Source: an uncultured Verrucomicrobiales bacterium
GTDB taxonomy: Bacteria > Verrucomicrobiota > Verrucomicrobiia > Limisphaerales > JAYPXF01
Assembly (NCBI GenBank): GCA_937893495.1
Contig: CALBIE010000391.1
Span: 1,363-65,362, forward strand
DNA length: 64,000 nucleotides
Reading direction: 5' to 3'
Shown here: one piece after another, positions 14,282 through 32,716 of the stretch
How the letters are laid out: each line of letters begins with the position of its first letter
Numbering within the stretch: the first letter of the stretch is position 1
The notes under the pieces: generated by a model
Told to the model about the DNA's origin: nothing
Databases searched by the model: none
The model's input: only the letters and a program-made list of their open reading frames with translations
Made by a program: the position numbers and the translations under genes

Positions 14282-14351
14282 CAGCAAGGTTTGGCTGTCG
14301 CTGAAACTTTGTTTTGTTCGTTAGAATGGGCCGGGAATTCTTTAGGAATGG

Positions 14352-15980: not shown

Positions 15981-16035
15981 CGCCCGGACTGACCCGGCGC
16001 GTTGGAATCGTCGCCGGCTACTTTTGGTAGCGTGT

Positions 16036-16479: not shown

Positions 16480-16541
16480 TGGTGAGGATCTCGCTGCTGA
16501 TTTGAACGTACGCAATTCAAATTAACCCGTTAAACGAACGA

Positions 16542-19112
16542 ATGTCTGACGCAAAAGCATGCCCCCAGTGCGGGAGTGAAATGAGTCCGTCCGAACTCGA
16601 CGGGCTTTGTATGGCCTGCGTGGCGAAGATGGGCTTCAGCGAGGCGGAGATTGGAATCGATCCCCGGCCCGATGATGGTCCGGTGAAATCCGAGGTGCCC
16701 CGGAAAATCCGCTACTTTGGTGATTACGAAATTCGCAGTGAGGTTGCCAGGGGAGGGATGGGAGTTGTCTATCGTGCGCGGCAGATGACGCTGAACCGGG
16801 ATGTCGCGCTCAAAATGGTAATGGGTGGCGTTCTGGCATCTGAAACGGAGGTCCAACGTTTCCGCACCGAGGCGGAAGCGGCTGCCCGGCTCGATCATCC
16901 CAATATCGTGGCCATCTACGAATTCGGTGAGCATGAGGGTTGCCAATACTTCACGATGAAGTTCATCGAAGGCGGCAGCCTGGCTCAACGGATCGGGGAA
17001 TACACCGGCCATCAGCGCGCCGCTGCCGTGCTGATGGCCAAGGTTGCGAGGGCGATTCACTATGCTCACCAACACGGCGTGCTCCATCGTGATGTCAAGC
17101 CGGCCAACATCCTGCTCGACGAATACGGGGACCCGCACGTGACCGATTTCGGGCTGGCAAAGATCGTCGAGGACGAACGCAATCTGACCCTGAGCGGCGC
17201 CGTGATGGGGTCGCCGGCCTACATGGCGCCGGAACAGGCGGAAGGCAGCAGCAAACGGATCAGTGCCGGCACCGATGTCTATGGCCTCGGGGCAGTTCTT
17301 TACCACCTGCTGACTGGTTCCCCACCTTTCAAAGGGAAATCAGCGATGCAGGTGGTTGCCAAAGTGATTGATTCCGCACCGGCCTTGCCGTCCTCATTGA
17401 TGCCGAAATTGGATGAACAGCTCGAATCCATCTGTCTTCGCTGTCTGGAGAAGAATCCTGCGAGCCGGTATTCATCCGCGGCGGGACTGGCCGATGATCT
17501 GGAGCGATGGCTGCAAGGTGAACATCGGGAATCCTCGCGCGCGCCGTTCGCAGCTCGGTTGCGGAACAGGATTCGCCGAAATCCCGTCGTGGCCGGTTGC
17601 CTGGCTGTCGCGGTATTGGCTCTTGGGATGGTTGGATGGAAGTATCTTCCAACCGGCGGCTGGCTTGGGAAACGCGGGGAAATCTTAAAAGCCGGGGGCA
17701 TGGCTCCATCGAAACAAGTGAGTCCGTTTGTGGGAACGAACGCTCAACTTCGAGCCAGATGGACCAACAGCCTCGGAATGGTCTTTGTGCCTGTGCCGGG
17801 AACGGAAGTGCAGTTCTGCATCTGGGAGACCCGGTTTCAGGATCACGGAACGTTTGCGAAGCAGACGAGCCGGGCGGTGAAATTGCCTTCGCTCGAAGGC
17901 CCGACGTACCCGGCAGTGAATGTGTCGTGGGGCGAAGCAAAGGAATTTTGTCAATGGCTGACCGAGAAGGAACAAAAGGCCGGATTGCTCGCGAGCGATC
18001 AATTGTATCGGCTACCTACGGATGAAGAATGGAGCCGGGCGGTGGGCTTGACGAGTGAAAGCGGGTCAACGCCGGTGATGCGAATGGCCGCAGGAATCAA
18101 AGGTGTCTATCCCTGGGGAACGGGGTGGCCGCCGCCTCGGGGCGCAGGGAATTACGCGGAGAGTCTGAACATGGATGATTTCGAGCGCACCGCTCCCGTG
18201 GGCTCCTTTGATGGGAACGCTTACGGAATTCATGACCTGAGCGGCAATGTATGGGAGTGGTGCGAAGACAGTCCCGGCGACAGCGGTCGCAACCGCCGTG
18301 TGCTGCGCGGTGGATCCTGGAACTGCGACCGTCCCGCCGATCTGTTGTCCTCCGGCCGCTTCATCAAGGAGGTGCCGTCGACGCCCTACGATCACATTGG
18401 GTTTCGAGTTGTGCTGGCAATCTTTGATTCGGAACTCGAAAGAAACCTCCGTCGGACGTCTCAGTCGGCCGTGGAGGACGGAAGCGTCCGGGCAATCGTC
18501 CCCGGCGGTCTGGCATCGTGCCGGCAGTTGCTGAAGAAACAGGGCGGTGACGAAAACAAGTTGTACGTCCACGGCGGAATACTTTGTTACGACGAAATCG
18601 ACGGACTTAATCTCGATCCGTTGAAGGGGGTTCCCTTGAATTCGCTCCACTTTGTCGGATCCCCGACAGCTGATCTGAAACCAGTGGTGGGGATGCCGTT
18701 GTATAATCTCAATCTGCATTCCAGTCCGAATCTCACCGATTTGTCCCCAATCCGCGCGTTGCAATTGCGAAAGCTCACGCTTGATGGGTGTACGAGTATT
18801 CGTGATTTTTCCGTGCTGTCAGAATTGAATCTTGAGTCGCTTGACCTGAAGGGGACCGCCATTGCTGATATTTCAATCGTCATAGGAAAGAACCTGAAGT
18901 ACCTCCGGCTTGAGGAATGTCGCCAGATCAAAAGTCTGCTGCCGCTGAAAGGACACAACTCGATCGAGACATTGATCGTTCCGATGAACGCGCCCGACAT
19001 GGAAGCATTACGAGGTCTGCCAAAGCTCAAGATGATTGGTTTCACTGAAGAAGGCTTGAAGGCGCCCAAGGATTTCTGGGCGGAATACGATTCGAAGAAA
19101 AAAGACCGTTAG
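16542..19112 (+). CDS. Ser/Thr protein kinase - TM - FGE/SUMF1-type (formylglycine-generating-enzyme-like) domain - LRR-like module 1
   Basis: 856-aa ORF. CPQCG...CMAC N-terminus. Kinase motifs (ARGGMGVVYRA, ALKMV, HRDVKPANILL, DFGLAK, GSPAYMAPE). TM (VVAGCLAVAVLALGMVGW). SUMF1 motifs (NSLGMVFVPVPG, VSWGEAKEFCQWLT, YRLPTDEEW, GNVWEWCED, RVLRGGSW, GFRVVL). C-terminal LRR-like repeats ending FWAEYDSKKKDR, paralogous to the tail of the 23754 gene. Confidence 0.9.
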   Translation: MSDAKACPQCGSEMSPSELDGLCMACVAKMGFSEAEIGIDPRPDDGPVKSEVPRKIRYFGDYEIRSEVARGGMGVVYRARQMTLNRDVALKMVMGGVLASETEVQRFRTEAEAAARLDHPNIVAIYEFGEHEGCQYFTMKFIEGGSLAQRIGEYTGHQRAAAVLMAKVARAIHYAHQHGVLHRDVKPANILLDEYGDPHVTDFGLAKIVEDERNLTLSGAVMGSPAYMAPEQAEGSSKRISAGTDVYGLGAVLYHLLTGSPPFKGKSAMQVVAKVIDSAPALPSSLMPKLDEQLESICLRCLEKNPASRYSSAAGLADDLERWLQGEHRESSRAPFAARLRNRIRRNPVVAGCLAVAVLALGMVGWKYLPTGGWLGKRGEILKAGGMAPSKQVSPFVGTNAQLRARWTNSLGMVFVPVPGTEVQFCIWETRFQDHGTFAKQTSRAVKLPSLEGPTYPAVNVSWGEAKEFCQWLTEKEQKAGLLASDQLYRLPTDEEWSRAVGLTSESGSTPVMRMAAGIKGVYPWGTGWPPPRGAGNYAESLNMDDFERTAPVGSFDGNAYGIHDLSGNVWEWCEDSPGDSGRNRRVLRGGSWNCDRPADLLSSGRFIKEVPSTPYDHIGFRVVLAIFDSELERNLRRTSQSAVEDGSVRAIVPGGLASCRQLLKKQGGDENKLYVHGGILCYDEIDGLNLDPLKGVPLNSLHFVGSPTADLKPVVGMPLYNLNLHSSPNLTDLSPIRALQLRKLTLDGCTSIRDFSVLSELNLESLDLKGTAIADISIVIGKNLKYLRLEECRQIKSLLPLKGHNSIETLIVPMNAPDMEALRGLPKLKMIGFTEEGLKAPKDFWAEYDSKKKDR

Positions 19113-19120
19113 AATACCGG

Positions 19121-19155
19121 CTGAATGCTTTTGTAGTAGGGGAACAACGAAGAAC
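19121..19155 (+). promoter_or_regulatory. conserved leader module (CTGAATGCTTTTG + purine-rich RBS region) preceding an ATGGCCAAAC start
   Basis: ctgaatgcttttgtagtaggggaacaacgaagaacATGGCCAAACC. Nearly the same string precedes ATG 22456, a shorter version precedes ATG 26560, and TGAATGC alone precedes ATG 23754. Confidence 0.35.
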
Positions 19156-22100
19156 ATGGCCAAACCACAGTCCAAAAACTTTTTCACCATGAGGCAAACA
19201 TATTGCGCCACCGAGCGGGTCGATAACCACCGCAATGCTCCAATCGTTCGAATCACGCTCGCAGTGACTGTGTTCATGACCGCCTGCACTGCGGAACCAC
19301 TTCCGCCCGCCAGGAGCAAGCAACTCTGTTACTCGATCGTACAGGATATTGATCGCGCCATGCGCGAATGGGCCCGGCGCTCGAAACCGAAGATTGGTCA
19401 GAAAATTGATTTGGAAGTACTGGCGCCCTTTCGCAGGCGAGGTCTGCCGGTAGTCTGTCCGATTGGAGGGGAAATCACCGTGAGTGAATATGGCGATCTT
19501 CCGGTCTGTAGCCTGCCGGAACATCAGCACAGACCATGGCGCAGCCTGCCGCCACAAATCGCCATCAAGCATCGTATCGGTGAATTGGAATCGAAAGACA
19601 GCAAACAGATTCTCCGGGCATTCAACCAGATCGAGCGCTCCGCCTATGCGAACACCAACGGGGCGGTCTTGTTACCGCACATGCTTGATGCGCTCGACGC
19701 AATGGCGCCAACCATCGAGGACGTGGAACGATACATCGTCAAATACCCGCGGGAAATCATGGGTTCGATGAATCCGGTTAACACAATGACGAAGTTTTCA
19801 AGTAACTCTGTTCCCATTCTGCTCTCTGCTGTGACGACTCGTACTCGTTCCAATCTGACGCGCCGTGTTTGCTTCGAGGCGTTGACCAGAATGAAGTTCC
19901 CCGGCCACAAGGATGTCATAATTGCCGGCTTAACCAACGACGTGCCGCTGGTCAACGTATTGGCGATGCAAACCTTGAGGCGTCACCCGGATTACGTTGA
20001 AGCGGCCGGGGATTTGGTTTCGAACAGCATGAAGCAGGTTTTACACAAACTGCATCCGGATGATGTGCAATGGGCGATCATCCCATTCGGCTATTTGAAG
20101 CTCGAAGTCGGGCAATTCGTTCCGGATTTGGGCAGGATTATTTTTGCCGAACCGGATCCGTCCGTTGAAACCAAGAATCAGACGCGCATTTCCTCCGGCG
20201 CGAGTCTTTTCGCCCGGGCCAAGCCGGACGCCAAACGTGCAATTGGTGCGATGGCAGCACAGTATTTTCGATCGAACTCAGCTCATCAACGCAGGGCTGC
20301 CGCAAGCGTCTTAAGGATTATCGGCGGCGAGGCAAAGGAATGGCGCAACCTTCTCGTTTCGGGCGTCGACGACGACGACGAGCAGGTGCGTCTCAATTCC
20401 TTTCAGGCGCTCAGGAACCTCGACGAGGAACCGGACACTTGGCTGGCATTGAATCAACGGAAGCTGGCCGACAACAGTCATTCGATCCGAAGACTCGCTT
20501 CGCAACATCTTGCGCAGATCGTCGTCACGGATTCCCAGCGGATACTGCCAATTGTTCTGAAACTCCTCTCGGACACCAACCACCTGGTGCGCATTGGAGC
20601 CTTGGAAACCCTTGGAATGATGCGTCCGCCCGCTGGCAGTGCCCTCCCGTCAGTGGCAAGTGCGTTGAACGACAAGCACCCGCTCGTCCGGTCCTCAGCA
20701 GTTGCAACCTTGGGGAAGTACGGTGATGCCGCCCGCACCAGTATTCCGGAACTTCTGTCCCGGTTCAAAGCCCCGGATGAAACGGCCAAGGCAACCTTCC
20801 TGACAGCGCTCGGTCAAATAGACCCTGAGAATGCTTCTGTCATCGAAGCCGGCATGGCTGGTCTGGAATCTGACAGCAAAGCCACTGTGATCGCAGCGGC
20901 AGGCGTTCTGAGCCGCACGAAGGCCTATCTTGCCCCTCACGTTGATCGACTTTTGCACCTGATGAAGGACCGGCAGAAGCGCACTGACGGCAAGATTCCA
21001 TACCTGCTCCAAAAAGTGGGGCCGGAGGCACTGCCGAAACTGATCTCGGCGCATCAGCAAGGCCCGGAGAACCTGAGTTGGGTTGTCATCAATGTCGTTG
21101 GTTCGCTTCGTGGGCATGATGTGGAAGTCCCACCAGAAGTGGCAAATCAACTCGCGCCGTTGTTCACAGAATGGTTTGAGTTCAATACCAAAGTGGCTGT
21201 TTTTCCTCCGGATGCAGTCAGACCGCGCATTGCTGCGGCTTTTCCGGCATTGGGTAGGATTGCGGCGTCTGAGATGGCGTATCTTCTGAGCATTCAAAAA
21301 TCCAAATCGGGAGCCAGTGCCTTCTCTAATCGATACGACCAGGATCTCCTCCGGAGAGCATTCAAGAAACTGACCGAAAAGTATCCTGATGTTAAGCTGG
21401 TGGATCTTGCGGCGAAAACAAGAGTTCCGGTTGAATGGAAAAAGTTTCTCGGCACGTATCGGCGCAATCCGTATGAGAACACCTGGCACGAAGGTGTTCT
21501 CAGTTGGGTCGGGATGAATGCAAAAGGATTGCCCGTGCTGAAATGGCGCAATATGGCCGGCATAGAATGGGAGCTTCTGCCTGAGCCGAATTCATGGAGA
21601 ATGAAAACCGGCACGGGAAATCCGTACCAGTCGAAAGGCTATCCCGCTGCCCTGGAATTCCGGTTCCGACCACAAACCGATCAAAATCGGCCACCGCACG
21701 GATTCCAGTTCAACCAGGATTATTTTGTACGAATTGATCCTATGGTCATGCGTTTCTTGGGGCTGTTGGGGAAGACTGCAGGGCGACCAACCAACACGCA
21801 ACCGCAACCGAAGAAAGCTCCCCCGTCTCCCAGTCCATCAAAGGAGCAGTTGGAACGAATCTGTTTTCAGAGTCTCAATTCCATCGACCGTGCAATCGTG
21901 AAATGGGCGACAAGCAACAAGATCAAACCTGAATCGCCGATCGACCGGCGTGCGCTGCTCTCCCACCTCTCTCGCTCCCTCATGCCCAAGTGCCCGTCGG
22001 GTGGCGCCTATGAAACCACCGTGGCAGGCGAAGTGCCGACCTGTTCTGTTCACGGCAGTTCCACACCGAACCGAAAGCGTTCGCCCATCAAATTATTGGA

Positions 22101-22350
22101 CATGTGTATCGCCAACATGAAACAGATTGACGGTGCCACGCAGCAGTGGGCTTTGGAAAACAAGAAACTTTCGGGCTCTGCGGTTGATCGGAAGCAAATG
22201 CTATTCTATCTCAAGAACGGACAAATGCCGGTTTGTCCCTCTTCCGGTACGTATGTCCTTGCAAACATCAATGCCAGTCCATCGTGTTCGGTTCATGGGA
22301 GCCTGGGCACGGCAATGAAGGTCTCCAAACAACAGGGGAATCTTCCATAG
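19156..22350 (+). CDS. mosaic-family protein: MAKP start - pilin-like Cys module - HEAT repeats - module B - two more Cys modules
   Basis: 1064-aa ORF. It starts MAKPQSKNFF and has a hydrophobic/lipoprotein-like segment (ITLAVTVFMTAC). HEAT-like repeats (EQVRLNSFQALRNL, HLVRIGALETLGMM, HPLVRSSAVATLGKYGD). Module B (EWKKFLGTYRRNPYENTWHEG...GFQFNQDYFVRI). Three copies of the C..(N)..(Q)ID.A...WA...K...CP.GG.Y......P.CS.(H)G module. Confidence 0.9.
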   Translation: MAKPQSKNFFTMRQTYCATERVDNHRNAPIVRITLAVTVFMTACTAEPLPPARSKQLCYSIVQDIDRAMREWARRSKPKIGQKIDLEVLAPFRRRGLPVVCPIGGEITVSEYGDLPVCSLPEHQHRPWRSLPPQIAIKHRIGELESKDSKQILRAFNQIERSAYANTNGAVLLPHMLDALDAMAPTIEDVERYIVKYPREIMGSMNPVNTMTKFSSNSVPILLSAVTTRTRSNLTRRVCFEALTRMKFPGHKDVIIAGLTNDVPLVNVLAMQTLRRHPDYVEAAGDLVSNSMKQVLHKLHPDDVQWAIIPFGYLKLEVGQFVPDLGRIIFAEPDPSVETKNQTRISSGASLFARAKPDAKRAIGAMAAQYFRSNSAHQRRAAASVLRIIGGEAKEWRNLLVSGVDDDDEQVRLNSFQALRNLDEEPDTWLALNQRKLADNSHSIRRLASQHLAQIVVTDSQRILPIVLKLLSDTNHLVRIGALETLGMMRPPAGSALPSVASALNDKHPLVRSSAVATLGKYGDAARTSIPELLSRFKAPDETAKATFLTALGQIDPENASVIEAGMAGLESDSKATVIAAAGVLSRTKAYLAPHVDRLLHLMKDRQKRTDGKIPYLLQKVGPEALPKLISAHQQGPENLSWVVINVVGSLRGHDVEVPPEVANQLAPLFTEWFEFNTKVAVFPPDAVRPRIAAAFPALGRIAASEMAYLLSIQKSKSGASAFSNRYDQDLLRRAFKKLTEKYPDVKLVDLAAKTRVPVEWKKFLGTYRRNPYENTWHEGVLSWVGMNAKGLPVLKWRNMAGIEWELLPEPNSWRMKTGTGNPYQSKGYPAALEFRFRPQTDQNRPPHGFQFNQDYFVRIDPMVMRFLGLLGKTAGRPTNTQPQPKKAPPSPSPSKEQLERICFQSLNSIDRAIVKWATSNKIKPESPIDRRALLSHLSRSLMPKCPSGGAYETTVAGEVPTCSVHGSSTPNRKRSPIKLLDMCIANMKQIDGATQQWALENKKLSGSAVDRKQMLFYLKNGQMPVCPSSGTYVLANINASPSCSVHGSLGTAMKVSKQQGNLP

Positions 22351-22421
22351 TTCGTGGAGTGTGTCGGGAAATGTTGTGCCGGTTACGAATTCATGAAAAA
22401 TAAGATCTGTTGGAACTTCGC

Positions 22422-22455
22422 CTGAATGCTTTTGTTGAAAAGGAACAGCAAAGCC
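22422..22455 (+). promoter_or_regulatory. conserved leader module (second copy)
   Basis: ctgaatgcttttgttgaaaaggaacagcaaagccATGGCCAAACA aligns along its whole length with 19121-19165. Confidence 0.35.
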
Positions 22456-23592
22456 ATGGCCAAACAGTTGAAACATTCCTGCCACCATTGTGGGAACGTC
22501 ATTCCCCACGACGATGACGTGGTGGGGAACGAAGTGACTTGTCCCCACTGTGCGAACACCACCGTTCTGGGAAATGACTATTCGGGCCATATGGGGAACG
22601 CAAATTCCAATCCATGGGATGAAGATCCGTGGGAAAAGCAGATGGAAGAAGTCGCGAAAGAAGAAACCCAAGATCGCGAGCAACTGGTGGTCAGGAAGTG
22701 GAGCGACAGCGTGGTTGGCACGGTGTGGGGCGGGGTTTGTTTCCTGCCGATCATTGTTCTTCTGCTTTGGGGATTCGCGAGTGAGGAATATGGCCACACG
22801 CTCAAGGAATTCAGCGAGAAAGTCGTTCCCCCGGGCACCAATGGCCTTCCGGGCATCATCGGGTTCCTGTTTATTCTGCTCCCCACGGTGGTGGTGGGGA
22901 CTGTGCGTATCGTTCTGGCCCTCTGCTACAATCCATTTACCTATCTGATTTTTTGCAGTTGCCTGGGATTCGGCGCGTTGGCCGGTTGGTTCGTTGCAAC
23001 CGTTTGGAATCCTCGGGTTGAGCTTCTGCGTGGGTTCGCCACGGTATTGCTCGGCTTCACGCTTTCGTTCGGGTTCGTCCAAATGGTACTGGCCGAAAAG
23101 TGGAGGAACTTCAGCGCGAGCAAGATATCCGGACAGAGGAACCTCAAGGTACCTCAAAAGCCGGCTCCGAACGAATTGCCAAAGTCGACTCCCGGCGCGC
23201 CACCCGGTGTGCCCACCAAGGTCGCCCCGCAGAAGAAGCAGGCTGCAAAACCAGCGACCGCCATCGATTGGCGTGTCTTTATCGGAACGTACCGTCGCAA
23301 TCCCTACGAAAACACGTGGCATGTGGGAACCATCACCTATGTCGGCATGAGCGGCAGTGGAAAACCGATGCTGAAATGGCGAAATCAGGCAGGCATGGAA
23401 TGGCCACTCTATCCCACACCGGATACATGGAATGTTCGCACCGGCAAGGGAAATCCTTATCTGAACACGGACCAGGGCAATCATTTCGAATTCCGCCCGG
23501 GCCAGCATTCCAACAGCCCACCGGTTGGGTTTCAGTTCAACCAGGATTTTTTTCAACGACTCGTCGTGCCCGCCCAGGGGGGAGCGAGATAG
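22456..23592 (+). CDS. mosaic-family protein: zinc ribbon - NPWDED motif - about 4 TM - module B
   Basis: Met at 22456 (MAKQLKHSCHHCGNVIPHDDDVVGNEVTCPHC) preferred over the ORF-track start at 22426. NPWDEDPW motif, four hydrophobic helices, C-terminal DWRVFIGTYRRNPYENTWHVG...KWRNQAGMEWPLYPTP...GFQFNQDFFQRL. Confidence 0.9.
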   Translation: MAKQLKHSCHHCGNVIPHDDDVVGNEVTCPHCANTTVLGNDYSGHMGNANSNPWDEDPWEKQMEEVAKEETQDREQLVVRKWSDSVVGTVWGGVCFLPIIVLLLWGFASEEYGHTLKEFSEKVVPPGTNGLPGIIGFLFILLPTVVVGTVRIVLALCYNPFTYLIFCSCLGFGALAGWFVATVWNPRVELLRGFATVLLGFTLSFGFVQMVLAEKWRNFSASKISGQRNLKVPQKPAPNELPKSTPGAPPGVPTKVAPQKKQAAKPATAIDWRVFIGTYRRNPYENTWHVGTITYVGMSGSGKPMLKWRNQAGMEWPLYPTPDTWNVRTGKGNPYLNTDQGNHFEFRPGQHSNSPPVGFQFNQDFFQRLVVPAQGGAR

Positions 23593-23753
23593 TTGGGCAA
23601 CTCGATCCTGTGTATAGTCTCAATCAAGGCGGGAGACATCGGGGACCATGATGATGCAGAAACCAGAATCGATTGTGAAAAGCACGCCTATGCGAATAGT
23701 CTTCTGGTCACCACCGAGCGCTTGAATGCCCAACCATCACCAAAAGAAAGCTG

Positions 23754-26519
23754 ATGCCTGATTCAATACCCCAAACCTGTCCAAAATGCGGCCGGCCGCT
23801 TTCGGTTATCGGTGCCGGCACGGCAAAGTTTTTCGTTTGTGCTCCCTGCAATGTCACGCTTTCGCCCGATGACCAGGATTCGGAGCCCTCGACTGCACCG
23901 ATTGTGCTGGGCACCGATACGTCGCCGACCATTCCGCCAAACGGAGCATTCTGCTTCCCGTCTCTTACGCGCTGGGCGGCACTGGCAGTTGCGATGATCC
24001 TCGGACTCGCATGGATCTTATGGATTGGCATGCAGTTGAGCAGATTCTCTTCTCAAGGCGCCGGAATCGGGATTTTCGGTCCACCTTTTACCTTGTTGAT
24101 TTTGTCGGGAAAGGCAGCGCAATGGAGTATCGCCGGCTTTTTGATGGTGTTCGTCGCTCAACGCGTAAAACAACCAAAGGATTTGCTGCACCGAGTCCAT
24201 CTGGCGGCGTTATTGAGTGTCGCCGCGTTGGTGGCCAATCAGTCAGGCCTTTCGCTTCCGCTTGGGTTTCCTAGCCAAACCCTTCGTTATGCCGAGTCGG
24301 CAGGTTTCATCGCCTTTCTCCTGACGTTCGGGCTGCAGAAGGTCGATCCGGTCGCCAAGCGGCGGCCCCGCGTGCAACATCTGGCGATCTGGACGGCCGC
24401 GTTCATAGCCTTGGCATCTGTCGTTGGTTTCGCTGGATTGCCGGGATTTGTGTTGAGCGGTGCGTTCCTGTTGGCCCAAGGGCTGCAGGTCGTTTTCTTC
24501 TTCAGTTGCTTTAGGGAGCGACTCTCGATTCCCACCGCCATTCCTGAAGTGGGAGGTGATGCAGCGGCTGCACCGAAACCATCCTGGGGCCGGCAGGCAC
24601 TCGTCACCTCCATTTTTACCGGTGGAAGTATCCTTTGCTATGTTACCGCCTTGGCCAGCCCCGCCCTTGAAGGAGATGGCAGTCGAAGCGTGACGGGCCT
24701 CACCTGCCTTCTCTTTGGATGGATGAGTCTGGGCGACAACCAGGCATGGTTTGCGAATTTTTGCCTGTTCCCCGCTCTTTTCCTCTTAATGGCGCGAGGC
24801 TTGAGTGAACCACCCGCGAAGCGGCAAACCTGTCCCTCGTATTTTTTGGTCGTCATCCTCGCGGGATTGGCACTCGCCCTGTCGCTTGGAGCATTGGACA
24901 TGAAGGGTTTCGCCGTGCCCGTCGGTTGGGGGGGGCAGAGCAGCAATAAATGGCCGATAACGTCCATCGGACCCGGTTGTTATCTGTGGATCGCAAGCAT
25001 CCTTTTCATCGGAATGGGGGCTGTTGTTCTGATTCTAAGGGACCTATTGAATCTCAAGTCGACGGGCAGGCGAAGTTTGCTGGTGCTCGGCGGCGTCTCT
25101 GCAGTGGCGCTGTCTGTGGCGAGCCTCGCCAAATATGAAAAATCCTTACTGACAAAAAACCGCTATCGCAATGTTCCGTCGCAGCCCCAGGGTCGATCAG
25201 CCGCCCAAGGCGGAGTGAGTCGCCGACCGAGCCCGACTGCTTCTTTCACCGGCAAAATCCCAACACTCTCTGTTGCTCAATTCACCAATGCGTTTCTGCC
25301 CACGAACGGACTCGTGGCGTGGTTTCCTTTCAACAGTACCGTTCTGGACGAGAGTGGAAACGATCTTCATGCGACCAATCATGGCGCCCGATTCGTGGCC
25401 GATCGCTTTGGCATCGCGGAGCGGGCATTGAGGTTTGATGGAAAACAATATGTCGATTGTGGCACGAACCGCATTTTCGAACTGGGTGAACAGGGCACGC
25501 TGGCCTGTTGGATGCTTTCGTTCCAACCAACCGGCCCGCTCATTGGCAAAGATCCATTCCGGTATCACGACGACGTCCAGCTCGGCATCGATCCCCACGA
25601 TCGCGCCCGGGGCAAAATTGCCTTGGCAATGAGTCCGAAGCGCGAGGAAAAGATACACGTCGCCACCGGGCCAACTGCCACGCCCGGTCGCTGGTATCAC
25701 GTGCTTGGCCAATGGGACAAAAACGGTTATCGCCTGTTCATCAATGGGAAGCAGGTCGCCTCGGGTTCTGGAGCCCACAGTGTTCATGCTGCCGGCCATC
25801 CGTTGTTAATCGGCCGCTTTCAGACCAACCGATTCTTTCGCGGAATCATTGACGATGTCGCCATCTACGATCGTGCGCTGAGCGGCGATGAAGTGGAATC
25901 ACTTCATCGCTATTCTGAATTGGCCCTATGGCGGCACTCGCTAATGGAACATGGAATTGATTCGACGAAGTTGTCCTTCAACGGATCAAAATTGGAATTC
26001 GGCCTTGTTGATGGCCATGATTTACGCCCATTAACGGGAATCCCGCTCAATAGACTCTATTTCGTCGGGTCGCCGGTCACGAATCTGACCCCACTCGTTG
26101 GCATGCCGCTTGAGCACATCAATCTGCATGCGAGCCCGAAATTGAAGGACTTGTCCCCCCTCAGTGAACTGCCACTCAATTCCCTGATTCTCGATCGATG
26201 CACAGGCATTCTGGATTTGTCCCCTCTCAAGAACTTGAAGTTACGAGAACTTGATTTGAACGACATGCTGATCGCCGATCTTGCCCCTATCGGACAAATG
26301 AAGGTGACCTTCCTTCGGCTCGAAAACTGCCGCCAGATCGCAACCCTCAAACCGTTGCTGGGAAACACATCAATCGAAACCTTGGTCGTCCACACCGATG
26401 TTCCCGACATCGAAGTGATCCGATCTCTCCCCAATCTGAAGAAAGTCGGATTCACCTCAGCCAAACTGAAAACGCCGGAACAATTCTGGGAAGAATACGA
26501 TTTGAAGAAAAAACATTAG
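23754..26519 (+). CDS. mosaic-family protein: zinc ribbon - large polytopic membrane domain - LamG domain - LRR-like module 1
   Basis: 921-aa ORF. CPKCGRPL...CAPC, then roughly 10 or more hydrophobic helices. LamG (LVAWFPFNSTVLDESGNDLHATNHGARFVADRFG...GIIDDVAIYDRALSGDEVESL). C-terminal LRR-like repeats ending FWEEYDLKKKH. Confidence 0.9.
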   Translation: MPDSIPQTCPKCGRPLSVIGAGTAKFFVCAPCNVTLSPDDQDSEPSTAPIVLGTDTSPTIPPNGAFCFPSLTRWAALAVAMILGLAWILWIGMQLSRFSSQGAGIGIFGPPFTLLILSGKAAQWSIAGFLMVFVAQRVKQPKDLLHRVHLAALLSVAALVANQSGLSLPLGFPSQTLRYAESAGFIAFLLTFGLQKVDPVAKRRPRVQHLAIWTAAFIALASVVGFAGLPGFVLSGAFLLAQGLQVVFFFSCFRERLSIPTAIPEVGGDAAAAPKPSWGRQALVTSIFTGGSILCYVTALASPALEGDGSRSVTGLTCLLFGWMSLGDNQAWFANFCLFPALFLLMARGLSEPPAKRQTCPSYFLVVILAGLALALSLGALDMKGFAVPVGWGGQSSNKWPITSIGPGCYLWIASILFIGMGAVVLILRDLLNLKSTGRRSLLVLGGVSAVALSVASLAKYEKSLLTKNRYRNVPSQPQGRSAAQGGVSRRPSPTASFTGKIPTLSVAQFTNAFLPTNGLVAWFPFNSTVLDESGNDLHATNHGARFVADRFGIAERALRFDGKQYVDCGTNRIFELGEQGTLACWMLSFQPTGPLIGKDPFRYHDDVQLGIDPHDRARGKIALAMSPKREEKIHVATGPTATPGRWYHVLGQWDKNGYRLFINGKQVASGSGAHSVHAAGHPLLIGRFQTNRFFRGIIDDVAIYDRALSGDEVESLHRYSELALWRHSLMEHGIDSTKLSFNGSKLEFGLVDGHDLRPLTGIPLNRLYFVGSPVTNLTPLVGMPLEHINLHASPKLKDLSPLSELPLNSLILDRCTGILDLSPLKNLKLRELDLNDMLIADLAPIGQMKVTFLRLENCRQIATLKPLLGNTSIETLVVHTDVPDIEVIRSLPNLKKVGFTSAKLKTPEQFWEEYDLKKKH

Positions 26520-26528
26520 AGCCGACCG

Positions 26529-26559
26529 TCAATGCTTTTGAAGGTTGGAAAGGTGAAAT
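26529..26559 (+). promoter_or_regulatory. conserved leader module (third, diverged copy)
   Basis: tcaatgcttttgaaggttggaaaggtgaaatATGGCAAAGCC starts 9 nt after the stop of the LRR1-ending gene. The layout matches that at 19112/19121. Confidence 0.3.
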
Positions 26560-27993
26560 ATGGCAAAGCCGGTTACACACATTTGTCACGGGTGCGGGAA
26601 TGGCATTCCGCACGATGCTGAAGCAACAGGTAAGACTGTTTCGTGTCCGTATTGTGCAGTAGCGACCGAACTGGGAAAAATCTACCCGACATCTGAAATG
26701 TCCCGTGCGAATCCATGGGACGAGAGCGAGGAAGCCTCCCCGGAACAAACAGCTGAGATAACGGCACAAGGTTACCAATCCCCCCCTCCCCTTCCAAGGA
26801 AAGATGCCGATTCCACCGCTGACGTCGGCGAATCTGAGCAATCAATTCGTGGCCGCTCGGTGCGCAAGCGCGAACAGCCCGTAAAGGCTAACACTGAAGG
26901 AGGATCCTTGTTATTTCTTAGAGGATTCTTGTTAACGCTTTTGGGCATGGCTGCTGGGTTCGCTCTGGGTTTTAACTACCAAGATTCGATAAGCCCTGCT
27001 GTTACTAATCCGAGCACCGGGGAGCTGAACCCCGTCTTAATGGCCTTCAACGTGTTTGTGGGGTGTTGCGGAGCGGCTATCGGAGGAGTCATTGGGATTT
27101 TGTCACACTTGGTTTTGAAAGAATTTACAAAGCAGGATAAGGCGGGAGGCGGTATTGCCATCAGCCTATCCGAGATAATCGTCATTGCCGTCATGATCGC
27201 GGGCGTAATCTTTTCCACGCAGTTCGAATTCAAGGGACGTAGCGGCGCCAATCCGGTCAAGGTGGCAAAACTCGAACACGTCGTTTCAACGAATGAGACC
27301 AAGCCGAACAAGCCGGTGGTATCTCAAACGAATACCGACCCGACCAATCCGGAACTGGTCAGGTGGCAAAACAAAATGACCAAAGAAGGTCTCGAGAAGG
27401 TGAACCAGCTGCCAATTCCAATTCAATTGGCCTTGAAGGGGCGGGCCACCAAGGATGGGCAGGGAAACATTTCGATGAGTTTCCGGGAGTCCAAGATCGA
27501 CGACCTTTCAGGGATCAATGCCCTGCCCGTGACCGAACTCGATTTGGACTTGACCGGCATCCGGAACCTGAAGCCCTTGGAGGGCCTAAAGCTCCGGGTC
27601 CTGAAGCTTTACAATACCAGGGTGACCGACCTTCGCCCACTTTCGGACATGCCCTTGAATGTCCTGTTCATTAACAGCCCCGTCGCCGACCTGGAACCGC
27701 TGCGCGGAATGCCCTTGACAAACATGGCGGTCGTTTCGTCTGCAGTTGTGGATATCAGACCGTTGGCAGGAATGAAATTGAACAAGCTGTGGATTGCGAG
27801 CGATCGACTTGTGAGTCTTGCCTCCTTGAAGGGACAGCCGATCGAGAATCTCGAACTGGGTTGCCCGTCGATTTCGGATCTGTCGCCTCTGCTGGAATGC
27901 AGGCAGCTAAAGCGGTTGACGATTCACCCCAACCTGAACAAACGCGCCGGGATCCTCCTCCGTCATCCGTCATTGACCAACATTGTGAATTAG
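26560..27993 (+). CDS. mosaic-family protein: zinc ribbon - NPWDE - S/T-rich juxtamembrane motif - 3 TM - LRR-like module 2
   Basis: 477-aa ORF. MAKPVTHICHGCGNGIPHDAEATGKTVSCPYC; NPWDESEE; PRKDADSTADVGESEQSIRGRSV; three hydrophobic helices. C-terminal LRR-like repeats ending HPSLTNIVN, paralogous to the tail of the 28074 gene. Confidence 0.9.
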   Translation: MAKPVTHICHGCGNGIPHDAEATGKTVSCPYCAVATELGKIYPTSEMSRANPWDESEEASPEQTAEITAQGYQSPPPLPRKDADSTADVGESEQSIRGRSVRKREQPVKANTEGGSLLFLRGFLLTLLGMAAGFALGFNYQDSISPAVTNPSTGELNPVLMAFNVFVGCCGAAIGGVIGILSHLVLKEFTKQDKAGGGIAISLSEIIVIAVMIAGVIFSTQFEFKGRSGANPVKVAKLEHVVSTNETKPNKPVVSQTNTDPTNPELVRWQNKMTKEGLEKVNQLPIPIQLALKGRATKDGQGNISMSFRESKIDDLSGINALPVTELDLDLTGIRNLKPLEGLKLRVLKLYNTRVTDLRPLSDMPLNVLFINSPVADLEPLRGMPLTNMAVVSSAVVDIRPLAGMKLNKLWIASDRLVSLASLKGQPIENLELGCPSISDLSPLLECRQLKRLTIHPNLNKRAGILLRHPSLTNIVN

Positions 27994-28073
27994 TAAGCAC
28001 ACGGACGATTGGGAAAAGGCCCCATACGTCGAAAAGTTCCAGACAAAGTATCACTCTCAACATCATCGACCGA

Positions 28074-30644
28074 ATGATTAAGTTGCTACCTCTACTTGGC
28101 CTCGTTTTCTATATCGTGGCGGTTTCCCGTGCAGTCCCTTGTGCAAAAGAACGAGGTCTCAAGCCTCTCCACATCTGGCTGGCCGCCATCCCGCTATGGT
28201 TTTTCAATCAGGTAATTGCGGGTCCGCTGATCTTGGTTCCAATCCTAAGACTTCTAGGACCCCTTGCAGGTCTGTTCTATCACTCGCAGTTTTGGCAGGG
28301 GCTATTGGTTTTCTTGCTGATCCGGATCTTTCGCCGCCCTCGGAAAGAGGCCGATTCCAGCACTGACGTCGGCGAATCTGAGCAGTCAGTTCGTGGCCGC
28401 TCGGTATTCGTTCAGATGTCGAGAGGCGTCTTGTTGGGCGGGGCCGCTGGAGTAGTGGTGATATTGATCGCCGTCTCGCAGATGTTCGGTGCTGATGCGG
28501 GCGGGTTTATGATTGTCTTCGGAGGACCCCTGCTCGTGTTGGCAATCATCGGCGCTTCAGCGTACTTGGCAATCGGACGGTTCACGAACGGAAGCAGACG
28601 GTCTCGTCGCCCGGCGACCGGGTTGCGATGGATCGCCGCACTGTTGCTGGTATTTGGAATCGCCTACGCCGCGTCGCTATTCAATCGGCCCAGAGCGAAT
28701 CTGCCCAAACCCGTGGCCAGTGCAAACGCCGAACGAAGCCAGTGCCTGAAACATCTCAAAGAAATCGTGCTTGCCTTCAAGATATTCGCGGAGAAAAACG
28801 ATGGTCGGTTCCCCTTTGAATTCGAAGGCCCACCGGGAACAAAACCGTTTGTCAAACGTGATTCCAACGGCGACGAAATCGATCCCTTCCGCCATTTCTT
28901 GACGCTGAGCAACCAACTCGGTTCAACCAGGCTACTCACCTGTCCCAGTGACAAATCACGGAAAATGGCGGCCGATTGGACCTCGTTCCGTTTGGCTAAC
29001 ATCACCTACAAACTCCGAACCGGTCCGCAGGTCAACGGGATGCAGAATAACCAGAACGTGCTGATGTGGTGCCCGATTCACTTTACCCGCGCCTATTGTG
29101 ACAGTTCGGTCGGGCTGGGAAATCAGAGGCAGTTACTTGAAGCCATCGAGGCCGGAAAGAAGGCAAGTGTCAAACCACGCCCGGTGGATCGATCGCCAAA
29201 CAAATCGAAGGCTCTCGCTTCCAATTCTCCGCCCTTCCAAGAGCGATCCGACAATCCCGCCACGCCGAATCGGGTCACAAAGCGAAAGGCGAGGGCGAAT
29301 CCCCGGCCTACTCCAGAGCCACTCTGGCAGGGGAAAATTCCGACCATTCCAGTCCAACAGTTTACCAACGCTTACGCTCCAACGAACGGTCTCGTCGCGT
29401 GGTATCCCTTCAACGGCAATGTGCAGGATGAGAGCGGGAACGAACGCCATGCAACCAATCGTGGCGCGCGGTTCGTGCCAGATCGTTTTGGCGTGTCCGA
29501 TGGGGCGCTGAGATTTGACGGGAAACAATTTGTTGATTGCGGGACCAACAGCGTTTTCGAGTTGGGTAAACAGGGCAGCCTGGGATGCTGGATGTTACCG
29601 TTTGAAAGAACCGGCCCCTTGGTCGGCAAGGATTCCCTAAAGTTTCACGACGACATCCAGTTGGGAGTCAATCCCCACAACAAGGCCCGCGGGAAAATCG
29701 CGATGGCAATGAGCCCGAAGGAGGGCGAGCAAATCCGCCTTGCAACGGGCCCGGAAATCACGCCGGGCAAGTGGTATCACGTGCTGGGCCAATGGGACAC
29801 CAACGGCTTTCGCCTGTTTGTCAATGGGAAGCAAGTCGCCGAAAATACCGGTGACTATCGGGTTCATGCCGCTGGACACCCGCTGCTCATTGGGCGCTTT
29901 CAGACCAGTGAATACTTCAAAGGAATCATCGACGATGTTGCCATCTATAATCGGGCGCTGAGCGGCAACGAAGTGGAATCGCTTCATCGCTATTCCGAGT
30001 TGGCCCACTGCCAGAGCAGGCTGGAAAAGCAAGGTCTCGATCAGGTGAATCAATTGCCGACAAAGCTGCAATTGGCATTGATGGGCCGGGTATCCAAGGA
30101 CGCAGGCGGGAATCTGTCCATGAGTTTCAAGGATTCGAAAATACGCGACCTCTCCGGCCTCAACGGACTGCCGTTGACACGCCTCAATCTGGATGGAACC
30201 GGTGTTGCCGACTTGACTCCGCTGACGGGGTTGCGACTTCGTGAACTCAAACTCTGGGGAACACAGGTGACCAATCTGCAGGCGCTTTCGAAGATGCCAA
30301 TCAATGTCCTTTTCGTCGCCAGTCCGGTTGTTGACCTGGAACCCCTTCGGCACTGCCCGTTGGAGAATTTGTGGATTCTTTCGAAGAACCTCGCGGACAT
30401 CAGCCCGTTGACGGGAATGGAGTTGAACAATTTGTGGATTGGGAGCGACCGACTGGAGGATATTTCCGCATTGAAGGGACAGCCGATCGAGATACTCCGG
30501 TTGGACGGGTGTCCGTCCATTGCGGACTTTTCGCCTTTACTGGAGTGCAAGCGGCTGAAGCGCCTGAAGATTCATCCGAAACTGACCAACCAAATCGAAT
30601 TCCTCCGCGCGCATCCGCCATTGACCGACATTGTCAACCAATAG
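28074..30644 (+). CDS. mosaic-family protein: polytopic TM with S/T-rich motif - pilin-like segment - LamG domain - LRR-like module 2
   Basis: Met at 28074 (MIKLLPLLGLVFYIVAV) chosen, because the ORF-track start at 27789 overlaps the preceding gene out of frame. PRKEADSSTDVGESEQSVRGRSV; SQCLKHLKEIVLAFKIFAEKNDGRFP (pseudopilin/DUF1559-like); LamG about three-quarters identical by eye to that of the 23754 gene; LRR-like tail ending HPPLTDIVNQ. Confidence 0.9.
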   Translation: MIKLLPLLGLVFYIVAVSRAVPCAKERGLKPLHIWLAAIPLWFFNQVIAGPLILVPILRLLGPLAGLFYHSQFWQGLLVFLLIRIFRRPRKEADSSTDVGESEQSVRGRSVFVQMSRGVLLGGAAGVVVILIAVSQMFGADAGGFMIVFGGPLLVLAIIGASAYLAIGRFTNGSRRSRRPATGLRWIAALLLVFGIAYAASLFNRPRANLPKPVASANAERSQCLKHLKEIVLAFKIFAEKNDGRFPFEFEGPPGTKPFVKRDSNGDEIDPFRHFLTLSNQLGSTRLLTCPSDKSRKMAADWTSFRLANITYKLRTGPQVNGMQNNQNVLMWCPIHFTRAYCDSSVGLGNQRQLLEAIEAGKKASVKPRPVDRSPNKSKALASNSPPFQERSDNPATPNRVTKRKARANPRPTPEPLWQGKIPTIPVQQFTNAYAPTNGLVAWYPFNGNVQDESGNERHATNRGARFVPDRFGVSDGALRFDGKQFVDCGTNSVFELGKQGSLGCWMLPFERTGPLVGKDSLKFHDDIQLGVNPHNKARGKIAMAMSPKEGEQIRLATGPEITPGKWYHVLGQWDTNGFRLFVNGKQVAENTGDYRVHAAGHPLLIGRFQTSEYFKGIIDDVAIYNRALSGNEVESLHRYSELAHCQSRLEKQGLDQVNQLPTKLQLALMGRVSKDAGGNLSMSFKDSKIRDLSGLNGLPLTRLNLDGTGVADLTPLTGLRLRELKLWGTQVTNLQALSKMPINVLFVASPVVDLEPLRHCPLENLWILSKNLADISPLTGMELNNLWIGSDRLEDISALKGQPIEILRLDGCPSIADFSPLLECKRLKRLKIHPKLTNQIEFLRAHPPLTDIVNQ

Positions 30645-30704
30645 CAGAAGAAGGCCAACGCAAGCGGCGATGGCGAACAACTTGGTTTTCTTGAGTAGTT
30701 TCAT
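30645..30704 (-). pseudogene. orphan 5' gene fragment encoding a lipoprotein-type signal peptide
   Basis: Minus-strand ATG at 30704 gives MKLLKKTKLFAIAACVGLLL. After these 20 codons the frame runs antisense into the 3' end of the 28074..30644 gene and terminates after 56 codons. Confidence 0.3.
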
Positions 30705-30714
30705 ATGTATGTTT

Positions 30715-32397
30715 TTAGTTTCGGTTGGTTTTTTTCAGTTTATTGTATACGAGAAAGAAAAAGGAGATCCCAAACAAATTGAACAGGATCATCAACGGCA
30801 TCCCCCATGTTGATTTCTTGCTCAATTCATTTTTGACCAGCGCGTGCTGCTCAATCAATGACTTCAGAATGTTTGGCGCCGTTGCTCGGGTTGGCCAACT
30901 ATTGCTCTCGATGACATAGCTTTGTCCTCCACGAGGCAAATAACGATAATCTCGAACGTGTGTTTGTCCGGTGATTTTTGGCAGAATCAAGGATGCGTCC
31001 GGTAATTCGTGGATAATCTTGTTTGTCACCGTGCCCCAAATACGCATTTCCAGATACGTGGGAACATTGGTCGGCGTTACTGCCCACAAATTCAATCCGT
31101 AGTGACTCGAGGTAAATTTGTCCGGTATCAACGCCCGGCCTTCCTTGGTGATATTCTCGGCAAGGATCTCTGTTGCCACCAAGCCGTGGGCTTCTTCGGC
31201 ATTGGGGATCGGAAAATCAACCAAAGTCTTCTTGTCCGCCGCCCACGTCTTGTGGTCCTTGGGATACAGTAAGCGAATTCTAACTTTATCAGCGACGTTG
31301 GTGGTCTTAACCCAAAACAGCAAACCCACATCGCCTGGCAAAATGCCTCGGACTTGATTGGTTGTTGGGTGCGCCCGAAAGTAGTCAAATCCGGTGAATG
31401 CGTACCAAAGCGCCTGCTCAAACTGCGTCGTTGCAAGTGGATAGTCACGCTCATTGATCCGGCCGAGTTCCGTAAACTTTTCAAGATTGGTTCTCCCGCT
31501 TTCCTTCGCCAGTCTCTCGACGACCTCGAGCGAAAAACTGTAGTACTGAAATGAATCTTGGCCGTCGAATCCGACCGCGGTGTATCGGCTCCCCTTGTCT
31601 CGAAATTTACTCCCAATCGGATCGGTCGTCTTGATCCACCATTGACGATCTTCCGTTGAAACACGGACGGAAAAGAGAATATTTCTCGAGGTTCGCGGTT
31701 TGCCTTGCCTGGTGTAGCTGGTGATTTTCATTACTCCTTGCGATTCAACCAATTTGGCCGAAACGCTGGTTTGCATAAGCCCCCCAAAGCCAAGGAGGTA
31801 AAGAGCGAGCATGAAAAACAACGCTCCGGACTTTTCATGAAGACCTCCAGCGATGGTTCGTTGTCGCGTCGATGATAGTTGTTTCGGTAATTTCGTGGAT
31901 TGGTGAAATCCTCTGGCACCAATGGCACGGCCGGTAGTCCAATCCCCGATTACAGCGATTTCCGAATCTCTATGGGAGAGAATTGATCTCATCGCGTTAC
32001 AAAAGAGACGTTTGATTTCGACGTATTTCTCCAGCTTCCTTGGGATTAGCTCCTTGAGCCATATTGCACTAACATCTCCAATGTAGTTCTCGTTCGTCAA
32101 GTTGAAAGAGTGATCGTAACCGTTCACGGTGTCAGGAATACGGCGTAGAATACCGAGCCCATAAATCCTTTTTGTCGGGTGTGGCATCACATTTTCGTTG
32201 GTTACGCCGGATGGGAACGGCCACGGCTTAGAAGAGACGCTGCACAGCGCAGCTTTTTTTTTTGGCGGCATATCGCGCCCAGAAACATTCCCTGAGGCAG
32301 GGGTTTTGCAGGCGAGATACCACGGGCGTCCGTGCTCGTGTGGTGTCCGATTCGATACAACTTCGCCGGAGCGAAGGCAAAGTTCGGGCGGATACAA
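30715..32397 (-). CDS. hypothetical protein with internal and C-terminal hydrophobic helices, in an AT-richer patch; start codon uncertain
   Basis: 560-aa ORF with no recognisable motif. Alternative starts are at 32271 (MPPKKKAAL, immediately followed by an A10 tract) and further downstream (MLALYLLGFGGLMQTSVSA, signal-like). C-terminal helix WGMPLMILFNLFGISFFFLVY + KLKK. Composition is visibly AT-richer than the flanks. Confidence 0.6.
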   Translation of the reverse strand: MYPPELCLRSGEVVSNRTPHEHGRPWYLACKTPASGNVSGRDMPPKKKAALCSVSSKPWPFPSGVTNENVMPHPTKRIYGLGILRRIPDTVNGYDHSFNLTNENYIGDVSAIWLKELIPRKLEKYVEIKRLFCNAMRSILSHRDSEIAVIGDWTTGRAIGARGFHQSTKLPKQLSSTRQRTIAGGLHEKSGALFFMLALYLLGFGGLMQTSVSAKLVESQGVMKITSYTRQGKPRTSRNILFSVRVSTEDRQWWIKTTDPIGSKFRDKGSRYTAVGFDGQDSFQYYSFSLEVVERLAKESGRTNLEKFTELGRINERDYPLATTQFEQALWYAFTGFDYFRAHPTTNQVRGILPGDVGLLFWVKTTNVADKVRIRLLYPKDHKTWAADKKTLVDFPIPNAEEAHGLVATEILAENITKEGRALIPDKFTSSHYGLNLWAVTPTNVPTYLEMRIWGTVTNKIIHELPDASLILPKITGQTHVRDYRYLPRGGQSYVIESNSWPTRATAPNILKSLIEQHALVKNELSKKSTWGMPLMILFNLFGISFFFLVYNKLKKTNRN

Positions 32398-32716
32398 TTA
32401 ACAGAAAAAGGCCCGTTAGAATCCGCACCGGATTCTTTAGTAGTGGGGTAAAGCAAAGATGGATCAATCACGAGGAATTCACGCTCATCGCATTGCCACG
32501 GTTGATGTTTGGCAAAAGGCAATCGATTCGACCAAGGACGTCCCAACGTGCATAATTGGCAGCGTGCCAAGGAAATCATCACCCGTTACCACCCCCTCAC
32601 CAGGCTCTATCAAATTGAGCCGATCCGCGCGACCACGTGGCTGACAGTATGATTAGAAGGAGTCCCGAGCCGATAAGCGGTTCGGATTTCCCGGATATGG
32701 AAGACGACCGAAACCC

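Follow-up and report, generated by a model that had tools for sequence, protein, structure and literature searches.

A mosaic family of membrane proteins built from LamG and leucine-rich repeat cassettes in an uncultured Verrucomicrobiales bacterium

How do neighbouring genes come to share some domains while the rest of their sequence is unrelated? The question is raised by a stretch of 64,000 nucleotides (nt) from an uncultured Verrucomicrobiales bacterium (GenBank assembly GCA_937893495.1, contig CALBIE010000391.1, positions 1363 to 65362; hereafter the window, in whose coordinates positions are given unless stated otherwise). Four genes on its + strand (A, B, C and D) encode membrane proteins built from LamG and leucine-rich repeat (LRR) cassettes, and an initial annotation had proposed that these are products of domain-level recombination rather than simple tandem duplicates. 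Our analyses agree with the features expected of a mosaic family, i.e. similarity is confined to modules with sharp edges, adjacent modules have discordant histories and related contigs carry alternative module combinations. We consider it probable (roughly 75%) that the locus represents a lineage-restricted family of proteins that are anchored in the cytoplasmic membrane, carry outward binding heads and diversify by recombination between paralogues or alleles. The four genes are (TM, transmembrane):

16542-19112, + strand: gene A, with a Zn-ribbon, a Hanks Ser/Thr kinase, 1 TM helix, an FGE-sulfatase-like domain and an LRR1 tail
23754-26519, + strand: gene B, with a Zn-ribbon, about 7 TM helices (a polytopic body), LamG and an LRR1 tail
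26560-27993, + strand: gene C, with a Zn-ribbon, an S/T-rich patch, 3 TM helices and an LRR2-alpha tail
28074-30644, + strand: gene D, with about 5 TM helices and a patch shared with C, a Cys-rich module, LamG and an LRR2-beta tail

Gene A matches the Pfam families Pkinase (2.6e-50), FGE-sulfatase (2.4e-30) and, weakly, LRR_4, and its single predicted TM helix spans amino acids (aa) 348-366; gene B matches Laminin_G_3 (2.1e-21). The start of gene D is most likely the ATG at 28074 and not the GTG at 27789; the public collection has the former call (P0002, 856 aa).

Similarity is confined to cassettes

The cassettes of the four genes are located as follows:

18507-19109, + strand: LRR1 cassette of A, consisting of a cap helix, the LRRs and a terminal FWAEYDSKKK motif
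25251-25926, + strand: LamG cassette of B, 73% identical in aa and 74.6% in nt to 29331-30006, with both edges sharp
25917-26516, + strand: LRR1 cassette of B, ending in FWEEYDLKKKH
27352-27990, + strand: LRR2-alpha cassette of C, 60% identical in aa to the tail of D
29331-30006, + strand: LamG cassette of D, 80-81% identical in aa to the LamG of the relatives P0003 and P0124 (introduced below)
29997-30641, + strand: LRR2-beta cassette of D, about 60% identical in aa to all alpha tails

Similarity is confined to these modules: the bodies upstream of LamG in B and D are unrelated, as are all four bodies to one another. In nucleotide self-BLAST, the LamG cassettes of B and D, initially estimated by eye to be three-quarters identical, match at 25299-25926 and 29379-30006 (74.6% over 633 nt, E = 2e-114), and their proteins align without gaps at 73.3% identity over 225 aa. 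When measured in 45-nt steps, the B/D identity is 20-40% before 25236, 60-89% across 25251-25925 and <50% from 25926 onwards, so that the abrupt stop noted after the peptide HRYSELA is real; cassette similarity begins and ends within about 15 bases. All six segments quoted in the initial annotation translate in frame to the peptides given there.

The LRR2 cassettes of C and D (27382-27989 and 30026-30637) are 68% identical in nt (E = 6e-51) and about 60% in protein. The LRR1 cassettes of A and B share 50-54% of their aa (E = 9e-55); at the DNA level only the 3' part of their similarity is detectable (18902-19136 and 26312-26543, 65.8%), and this match extends beyond both stop codons into an intergenic leader. 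LRR1 therefore does recur on the kinase gene and LRR2 on the Zn-ribbon gene at the places first reported, but the true starts of the tails lie earlier than annotated (A 18507, B 25917, C 27352 and D 29997). Each LRR cassette opens with a helix of the form (S)ELA-x-(W/C)-(Q/R)-x-x-L-x-x-x-G, followed by repeats of about 21-22 residues; since it opens at the ELA helix, it adjoins the last residues of LamG or overlaps with them. End to end, LRR1 and LRR2 are in turn homologous to each other (about 30-36% aa); LRR2 differs by an insertion behind the helix and by one additional repeat. No further close copy of any cassette is present in the 8-Mb, 900-contig assembly, a metagenome-assembled genome (MAG) that is 88% complete.

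Identity at third codon positions is higher at the end of LamG (18/25 in the last 25 codons versus 102/200, p = 0.04) and at the terminal motif of LRR1 (9/13 versus 57/147, p = 0.03). This is compatible with the cassette edges being preferred crossover sites, but is not proof of it.

The in-window copies are old, as indicated by their synonymous divergence (dS), which is 1.54 for LamG of B and D, 1.49 for LRR2 of C and D and 1.94 for LRR1 of A and B. Three other samples have contigs that encode an identical B protein (L097-L099; L097 and L100 are one contig). Wherever these contigs cover the window within 13754-32182, they match it base for base. The identical arrangement in four independent assemblies indicates that it is real and fixed, with no MAG artefact and no visible switching.

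Adjacent modules have discordant histories

A search of 40 relatives and of 400 genomes from the order gave no close homologue of the cassettes outside the source genome, which makes a classical same-locus comparison in named genomes impossible. Relatives were obtained from searches of a collection of 5.8 billion proteins, which yielded five close ones (P0122, P0123, P0003, P0124 and P0125).

For the five LamG-LRR proteins (all those having both modules), a two-partition likelihood test rejects proportional branch lengths of LamG and LRR (twice the log-likelihood difference = 119, 6 degrees of freedom, p = 2e-23). The branch of B, for example, measures 0.18 in LamG and 1.92 in LRR, and that of P0125 measures 0.51 and 0.40, respectively. 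The LRR tree resolves an LRR1 group (B,(A,P0123)) with support of 100/100, an LRR2 group (D, P0125 and alpha) with 100/99 and an alpha clade with 100/98. The LRR data reject the LamG grouping of D, P0003 and P0124 (approximately unbiased (AU) test, p = 0.02) as well as a grouping of B with LRR2 tails (p = 1e-54). The LamG tree with distant outgroups has weak internal branches and an undecided rooting, and accommodates a root that is congruent with the LRR tree (AU p = 0.3). The incongruence predicted for per-module phylogenies is thus found in the LRR data, whereas the LamG topology is indecisive; because of this weakness we rely on the branch-length and dS tests.

Between D and P0003, dS is 0.45 in LamG and 1.27 in LRR (about 3-fold); between C and P0122, the body has a dS of 0.05 and the LRR one of 0.33 (about 6-fold), and the LRRs of C and P0003 differ by 0.32. 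Taken together, the branch-length, AU and dS results exclude whole-gene co-divergence and uphold domain-level recombination over simple tandem duplication.

Relatives carry other cassette combinations

The alternative combinations that had been anticipated in closely related sequences do occur. In P0123, encoded on contig L015, the body of C recurs at 96.5% nt identity (dS 0.05) and is joined to an LRR1-type tail, to which the tail of A is 59% identical in aa. L015 follows the window at 97-100% identity to about 27260, continues through a diverged linker of about 60 nt and then enters the LRR1-type tail, with the junction near L015 1380-1420:

27260-27320, + strand: breakpoint zone in the linker of C, where identity between the window and L015 falls from 97-100% to about 65% before reaching background (sliding windows, alignment)

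Upstream of this gene, L015 contains an LRR2-alpha tail, an untranslated FWAECDLKKKR remnant and the leader, followed by the C body; the LRR2-alpha tail stands where B has LRR1.

A D-type LamG joined to a C-type LRR2-alpha is found in both P0003 (contig L013) and P0124, which come from different samples. In L013, the body is an RDD domain, LamG is 83.6% identical in nt to the window (L013 6387-7149) and LRR2-alpha is 80.5% identical; the match runs past the LRR2 tail and the downstream intergenic region into a gene resembling the start of D. P0003 also contains a 147-nt tandem duplication (L013 7052-7347; 2 copies, 90% identity, no indels) that spans the end of LamG, the cap helix and the start of LRR2, and looks like the footprint of an unequal crossover at the cassette junction. 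P0125 (contig L014) is a more distant LamG-LRR2 protein. Overall, the LRR2-alpha tail of C is 85-88% identical in aa to the tails of P0003, P0124, P0122 and gene 1 of L015; at least three different partners are found upstream of LRR2-alpha, and the C body occurs with two tail subtypes. JGI metagenome contigs scanned with P0124 gave only generic LamG relatives (<=33% identity).

P0122 (contig L016) is an orthologue of C with the same arrangement and tail and a body at 96% nt identity. Its central LRRs are 77-85% identical to those of C and their flanks 92-100%, and 30 of its 41 private substitutions fall within 202 of 552 nt (p = 2e-6). Paralogue D was considered as the donor of such clustered substitutions, but it matches at only 11/23 sites in P0122 and 5/9 sites in gene 1 of L015, which is not convincing. 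In L016, unrelated sequence (about 55% identity) takes the place of a segment of about 140 nt that encodes the third TM helix (27120-27260), with flanks at 95-98%; the replaced block ends at about 27260, the same point at which L015 turns to its LRR1-type tail. The sources are SRR24111872 for L015, ERZ25071824 for L013, JGI 3300032736 for L016 and JGI 3300072015 for P0124; the window's own samples are ERZ1283824, ERZ23486293 and ERZ27051342.

The genes that flank the cassettes in L013, L014 and L015 have their best counterparts in the MAG at 46-72% aa identity, and the cassettes themselves are 80-97% identical in DNA. This mismatch could reflect accessory regions, gaps in the MAG or cassettes moving between genomes.

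Terminal motif and leader

LRR1 ends in FWxEYDxKKK, and the LRR2 relative P0125 still translates an FWQEYD end. LRR2 apparently lost this end via a stop codon or frameshift: the motif in L015 (FWAECDLKKKR) is well preserved but untranslated, and a degenerate trace lies behind gene C. The similarity between A and B continues from the stop codon through the leader and into the start of the next gene. The leader has a core, TGAATGCTTTTG, about 25-30 nt ahead of an ATGGC(C/A)AA(A/G)C start, and precedes three genes:

19113-19165, + strand: conserved leader after LRR1 of A (19113-19155), with the core TGAATGCTTTTG at 19122
22398-22465: leader copy, with the core TGAATGCTTTTG at 22423
26520-26570, + strand: leader copy between B and C (26520-26559), with the core TGAATGCTTTTG at 26529
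28031-28054, + strand: degenerate, out-of-frame remnant (EKFQTKYH) of the FWxEYD motif, 3' of the stop codon of C

The leader between B and C is 94% identical to L015 594-675, which is there preceded by an LRR2-type tail. It may be a promoter, a 5' untranslated region element or a duplication scar; a scan of the whole window gave no Rfam match, so it is not a known RNA family.

Proposed mechanism and alternative explanations

In the proposed family, the bodies would comprise a Zn-ribbon with a TM bundle, a Ser/Thr kinase with an FGE-like domain, polytopic TM bundles and, in a relative, the RDD domain, while the heads would be a LamG jelly-roll, an internalin-like capped LRR solenoid (LRR1 or LRR2) and, on neighbouring genes, a small barrel domain. 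New combinations may arise by ordinary recombination between tandem paralogues and diverged alleles, through segmental or tandem duplications and crossovers whose ends lie in inter-domain linkers. The crossovers would take place in homologous but diverged stretches (i.e. the linker of C at about 27260, the FWxEYD end and the cap), and short gene-conversion tracts may form inside cassettes. Exchange could be helped by a conserved 5' edge, formed by the last ~25 LamG codons and the cap helix, and by a conserved 3' edge, formed by the FWxEYDxKKK-coding end and the leader before the next gene.

Several observations weigh against this interpretation. The in-window pairs are old and the arrangement is invariant in four assemblies, with no sign of frequent switching. 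For each alternative combination there is one metagenome contig (labelled 2x in the case of L013, and a per-run Logan contig in that of L015), and since their flanks lack a close counterpart in the 88%-complete MAG, the relation of the donors to the source genome is uncertain. The 5' breakpoint of L015 is in a diverged linker and not in a conserved edge, or 'handle', and the tests of edge identity are post hoc and marginally significant. The topology of the window copies alone leaves room for an old whole-gene duplication of B and D with partial copies onto A and C, although that history would still need partial, domain-level duplications. The LamG half of the structural model (see below) is predicted with low confidence, and we only infer the function, topology and selection of the family.

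Could the four genes simply be whole-gene tandem duplicates whose domains diverged at very different rates, with no recombination or domain transfer? They are indeed all in tandem on the same strand, LRRs often evolve fast and the LamG data cannot reject the LRR-congruent rooting. We nevertheless regard this as highly improbable: A and C have no LamG and the four bodies are unrelated, which requires partial duplications at least; proportional branch lengths are rejected; the 3-fold (D/P0003) and 6-fold (C/P0122) contrasts are in dS, which is blind to protein constraint; and the C body is found at dS 0.05 with the other tail subtype in L015. It is also very unlikely that the combinations outside the window are assembly chimeras formed at shared k-mers, the window itself being an ancient, static shuffle. 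Chimeras would have to retain an open frame across the junction in three independent sources (a long ENA contig, JGI and Logan) and to join the same D-type LamG and LRR2-alpha in the different samples of P0003 and P0124. The LRR1-type tail of L015 has no high-identity match elsewhere, identity at its junction decays through a diverged homologous linker with no shared exact repeat, and the 147-nt duplication of L013 is 10% diverged, unlike an assembler repeat artefact. On the other hand, every variant is represented by one contig, and assemblies of repeated cassettes are error-prone, the MAG being in 900 contigs.

Programmed cassette switching, by silent-cassette gene conversion, a shufflon or a diversity-generating retroelement that uses the cap and the FWxEYD-leader as sites, would account for the conserved cassette edges with raised synonymous identity, the leader at three gene junctions, a 92%-identical 64-nt patch in otherwise unrelated sequence (described below) and the displaced tail remnant behind the newer tail in L015. 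It is very unlikely, and Rfam gives no match. For a shufflon, there are no inverted repeats >=20 nt in 12000-33000, all cassettes are on the + strand and inspection of the large open reading frames (ORFs) of the window showed no recombinase (or reverse transcriptase), the smaller ORFs not having been scanned. For a retroelement, the only RVT_1 match of the genome is on contig C582, outside the window, and no near-identical repeat pair exists within LamG or LRR. For silent-cassette antigenic variation, there are two copies per cassette, at 50-75% identity and all in complete ORFs, and the four assemblies are identical in arrangement. A dedicated exchange system is unlikely too, in which 'handles' would let LRR tails swap between genes, and perhaps genomes, of co-occurring Verrucomicrobiales; on the 5' side, the LamG-end/cap helix would act as the handle, and on the 3' side, the FWxEYD end together with the stop codon and the TGAATGCTTTTG leader. 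The presence of the C body at 96.5% nt identity in a contig whose flanks are absent from the MAG is compatible with cassette transfer between genomes. If it existed, such a system would amount to a plug-and-play receptor repertoire in a free-living bacterium, akin to antigenic variation or C-terminal displacement.

Predicted structure and topology

The AlphaFold2 model of the LamG-LRR2 half of D has a solenoid with a predicted local distance difference test score (pLDDT) >90 and a LamG part with pLDDT <50, and one long predicted helix runs across the LamG/LRR junction. The best solved-structure matches of LRR2-beta are the Listeria internalins InlF, InlC2, InlA and InlB. The number of predicted TM helices is odd in every body (A 1, C 3, P0003 3, D 5 and B 7), which, together with cytoplasmic N-termini bearing the Zn-ribbon or kinase, would place the heads outside the cytoplasm. 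There they may bind ligands and serve as sensor or adhesin heads, and the diversification of the repertoire may be under selection.

Comparison with known systems

Among known systems, the internalin cluster of Listeria, with its chimera inlH, comes closest. In Listeria monocytogenes, inlH combines the 5' end of inlC2 and inlD's 3' end, and strains differ in the form that they carry (PMC3977354). The two systems share tandem paralogues of capped LRR surface proteins, in which recombination between neighbours joins the head of one to the tail of another, and the LRR cassette described here has internalins as its best solved-structure matches along with weak internalin_A profile hits. These hits do not make it a member of the internalin family (NCBIfam internalin_A, 23-35 bits versus a cut-off of 1600); only the fold is similar. 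The two also differ in that (i) the Verrucomicrobiales proteins lack a signal peptide combined with an LPXTG or GW anchor, but are anchored by N-terminal TM bodies and carry the LRR at the C-terminus; (ii) the swapped unit is the LRR itself (plus LamG) and not the anchor region; and (iii) the host is a free-living lineage.

Hundreds of Hanks-type kinases of Verrucomicrobiota and Planctomycetota carry the same type of LRR cassette (about 30-40% identity) at their C-terminus, an architecture that gene A shares. By contrast, the cassette studied here also occurs on kinase-free Zn-ribbon/TM and LamG bodies, and it falls into two tight subtypes that are restricted to this lineage and swapped between neighbouring genes. 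Plant LRR receptor kinases and NLRs (nucleotide-binding LRR receptors) owe their evolution to tandem duplication, unequal crossing-over and domain shuffling. As at this locus, an LRR head for recognition is attached to a membrane or signalling body, the paralogues form clusters and their evolution is mosaic; here, however, the kinase lies at the N-terminus, in the cytoplasm, and the LRR at the C-terminus, so that the architectures are not homologous.

The new 3' cassette of L015, which has its own stop codon ahead of a leftover of the previous tail, recalls the displacement of CdiA-CT and Rhs C-termini, but no toxin domain, demarcation motif, immunity gene or delivery domain is found here, and the tails adopt binding folds. 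Another explanation for the remnant is that LRR2 ancestrally ended in FWxEYD and that a stop codon or frameshift cut this end off. Displacement of polymorphic toxins (contact-dependent inhibition/Rhs) was rejected for the window genes, whose tails are LRR folds and whose next genes are family members and not small immunity genes; B, C and D have no PADLOC hits and no hits to toxin families of Pfam or NCBIfam. PADLOC matches the kinase at 14352-15980 and that of A to PD-T4-6 and mad6 (E down to 1e-87) through the generic Hanks kinase domain only; no partner genes are matched, and the NCBIfam scores for MAD6 and PglW, of the anti-phage systems MADS and BREX, are far below the cut-offs. These matches are no evidence of a defence system.

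A search of the literature on Verrucomicrobia, LRR and domain shuffling returned nothing specific. The locus is a well-resolved case of a known class of mosaic surface or sensor proteins, and no new mechanism or kind of system. Domain shuffling is mostly inferred from deep comparisons, whereas here the intermediates are visible within one narrow lineage: one body with two tail subtypes at dS 0.05, LamG on three bodies, a duplicated junction and a displaced remnant. The locus also fixes exactly where a portable capped-LRR cassette begins and ends. It offers a tractable case from nature of how receptor-like proteins of bacteria, among them the abundant kinase-LRR proteins of the Planctomycetota-Verrucomicrobiota-Chlamydiota (PVC) group, gain new recognition heads.

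Other features of the locus

The patch shared by C and D is 64 nt long (26798-26861, + strand, and 28342-28405) and 92% identical within otherwise unrelated sequence. It encodes DSTADVGESEQSIRGRSV, in the reading DSTADVGESEQS(I/V)RGRSV immediately ahead of a TM helix, and is also kept (about 90%) in L013, L015 and L016. In L013, similarity to D stops 16 nt past the patch, and the first ~116 residues of D (28074-28421) form a separate small gene (L013 7953-8339) that adjoins the LamG-LRR2 gene; the contig of P0124 has a 120-aa gene at the same position, known by position and size alone. This gives D the appearance of a small TM protein fused to the product of a Cys-module-LamG-LRR2 gene.

Two more cassettes are shuffled at the locus, among genes in 12416-13165, 19156-22350 and 22456-23592: a C-terminal domain of about 105 aa (GTYRRNP...) that occurs in three genes at 53-69% aa identity, and a Cys4 Zn-ribbon N-terminus common to the genes at 12416, 22456 and 26560 (46-53% aa). 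All copies of both in the genome are inside the window.

At 32129-32478, the window has one repeat of about 350 nt and no desaturase gene. L097/L100 and L098, contigs of two other samples that are otherwise identical to the window, contain about 1.2 kb of extra sequence at this point (L097 18379-20279), which overlaps a called FA_desaturase gene and is flanked by imperfect direct repeats of about 350 nt (about 80% identical). The shorter form in the window could be due either to deletion by recombination between the repeats or to assembly collapse.

The neighbouring genes include Ser/Thr kinases, one of them with an FHA domain, and a sigma-70-family, ECF-like (extracytoplasmic function) sigma factor; the nearest named relatives of one neighbouring gene are 76% identical in aa.

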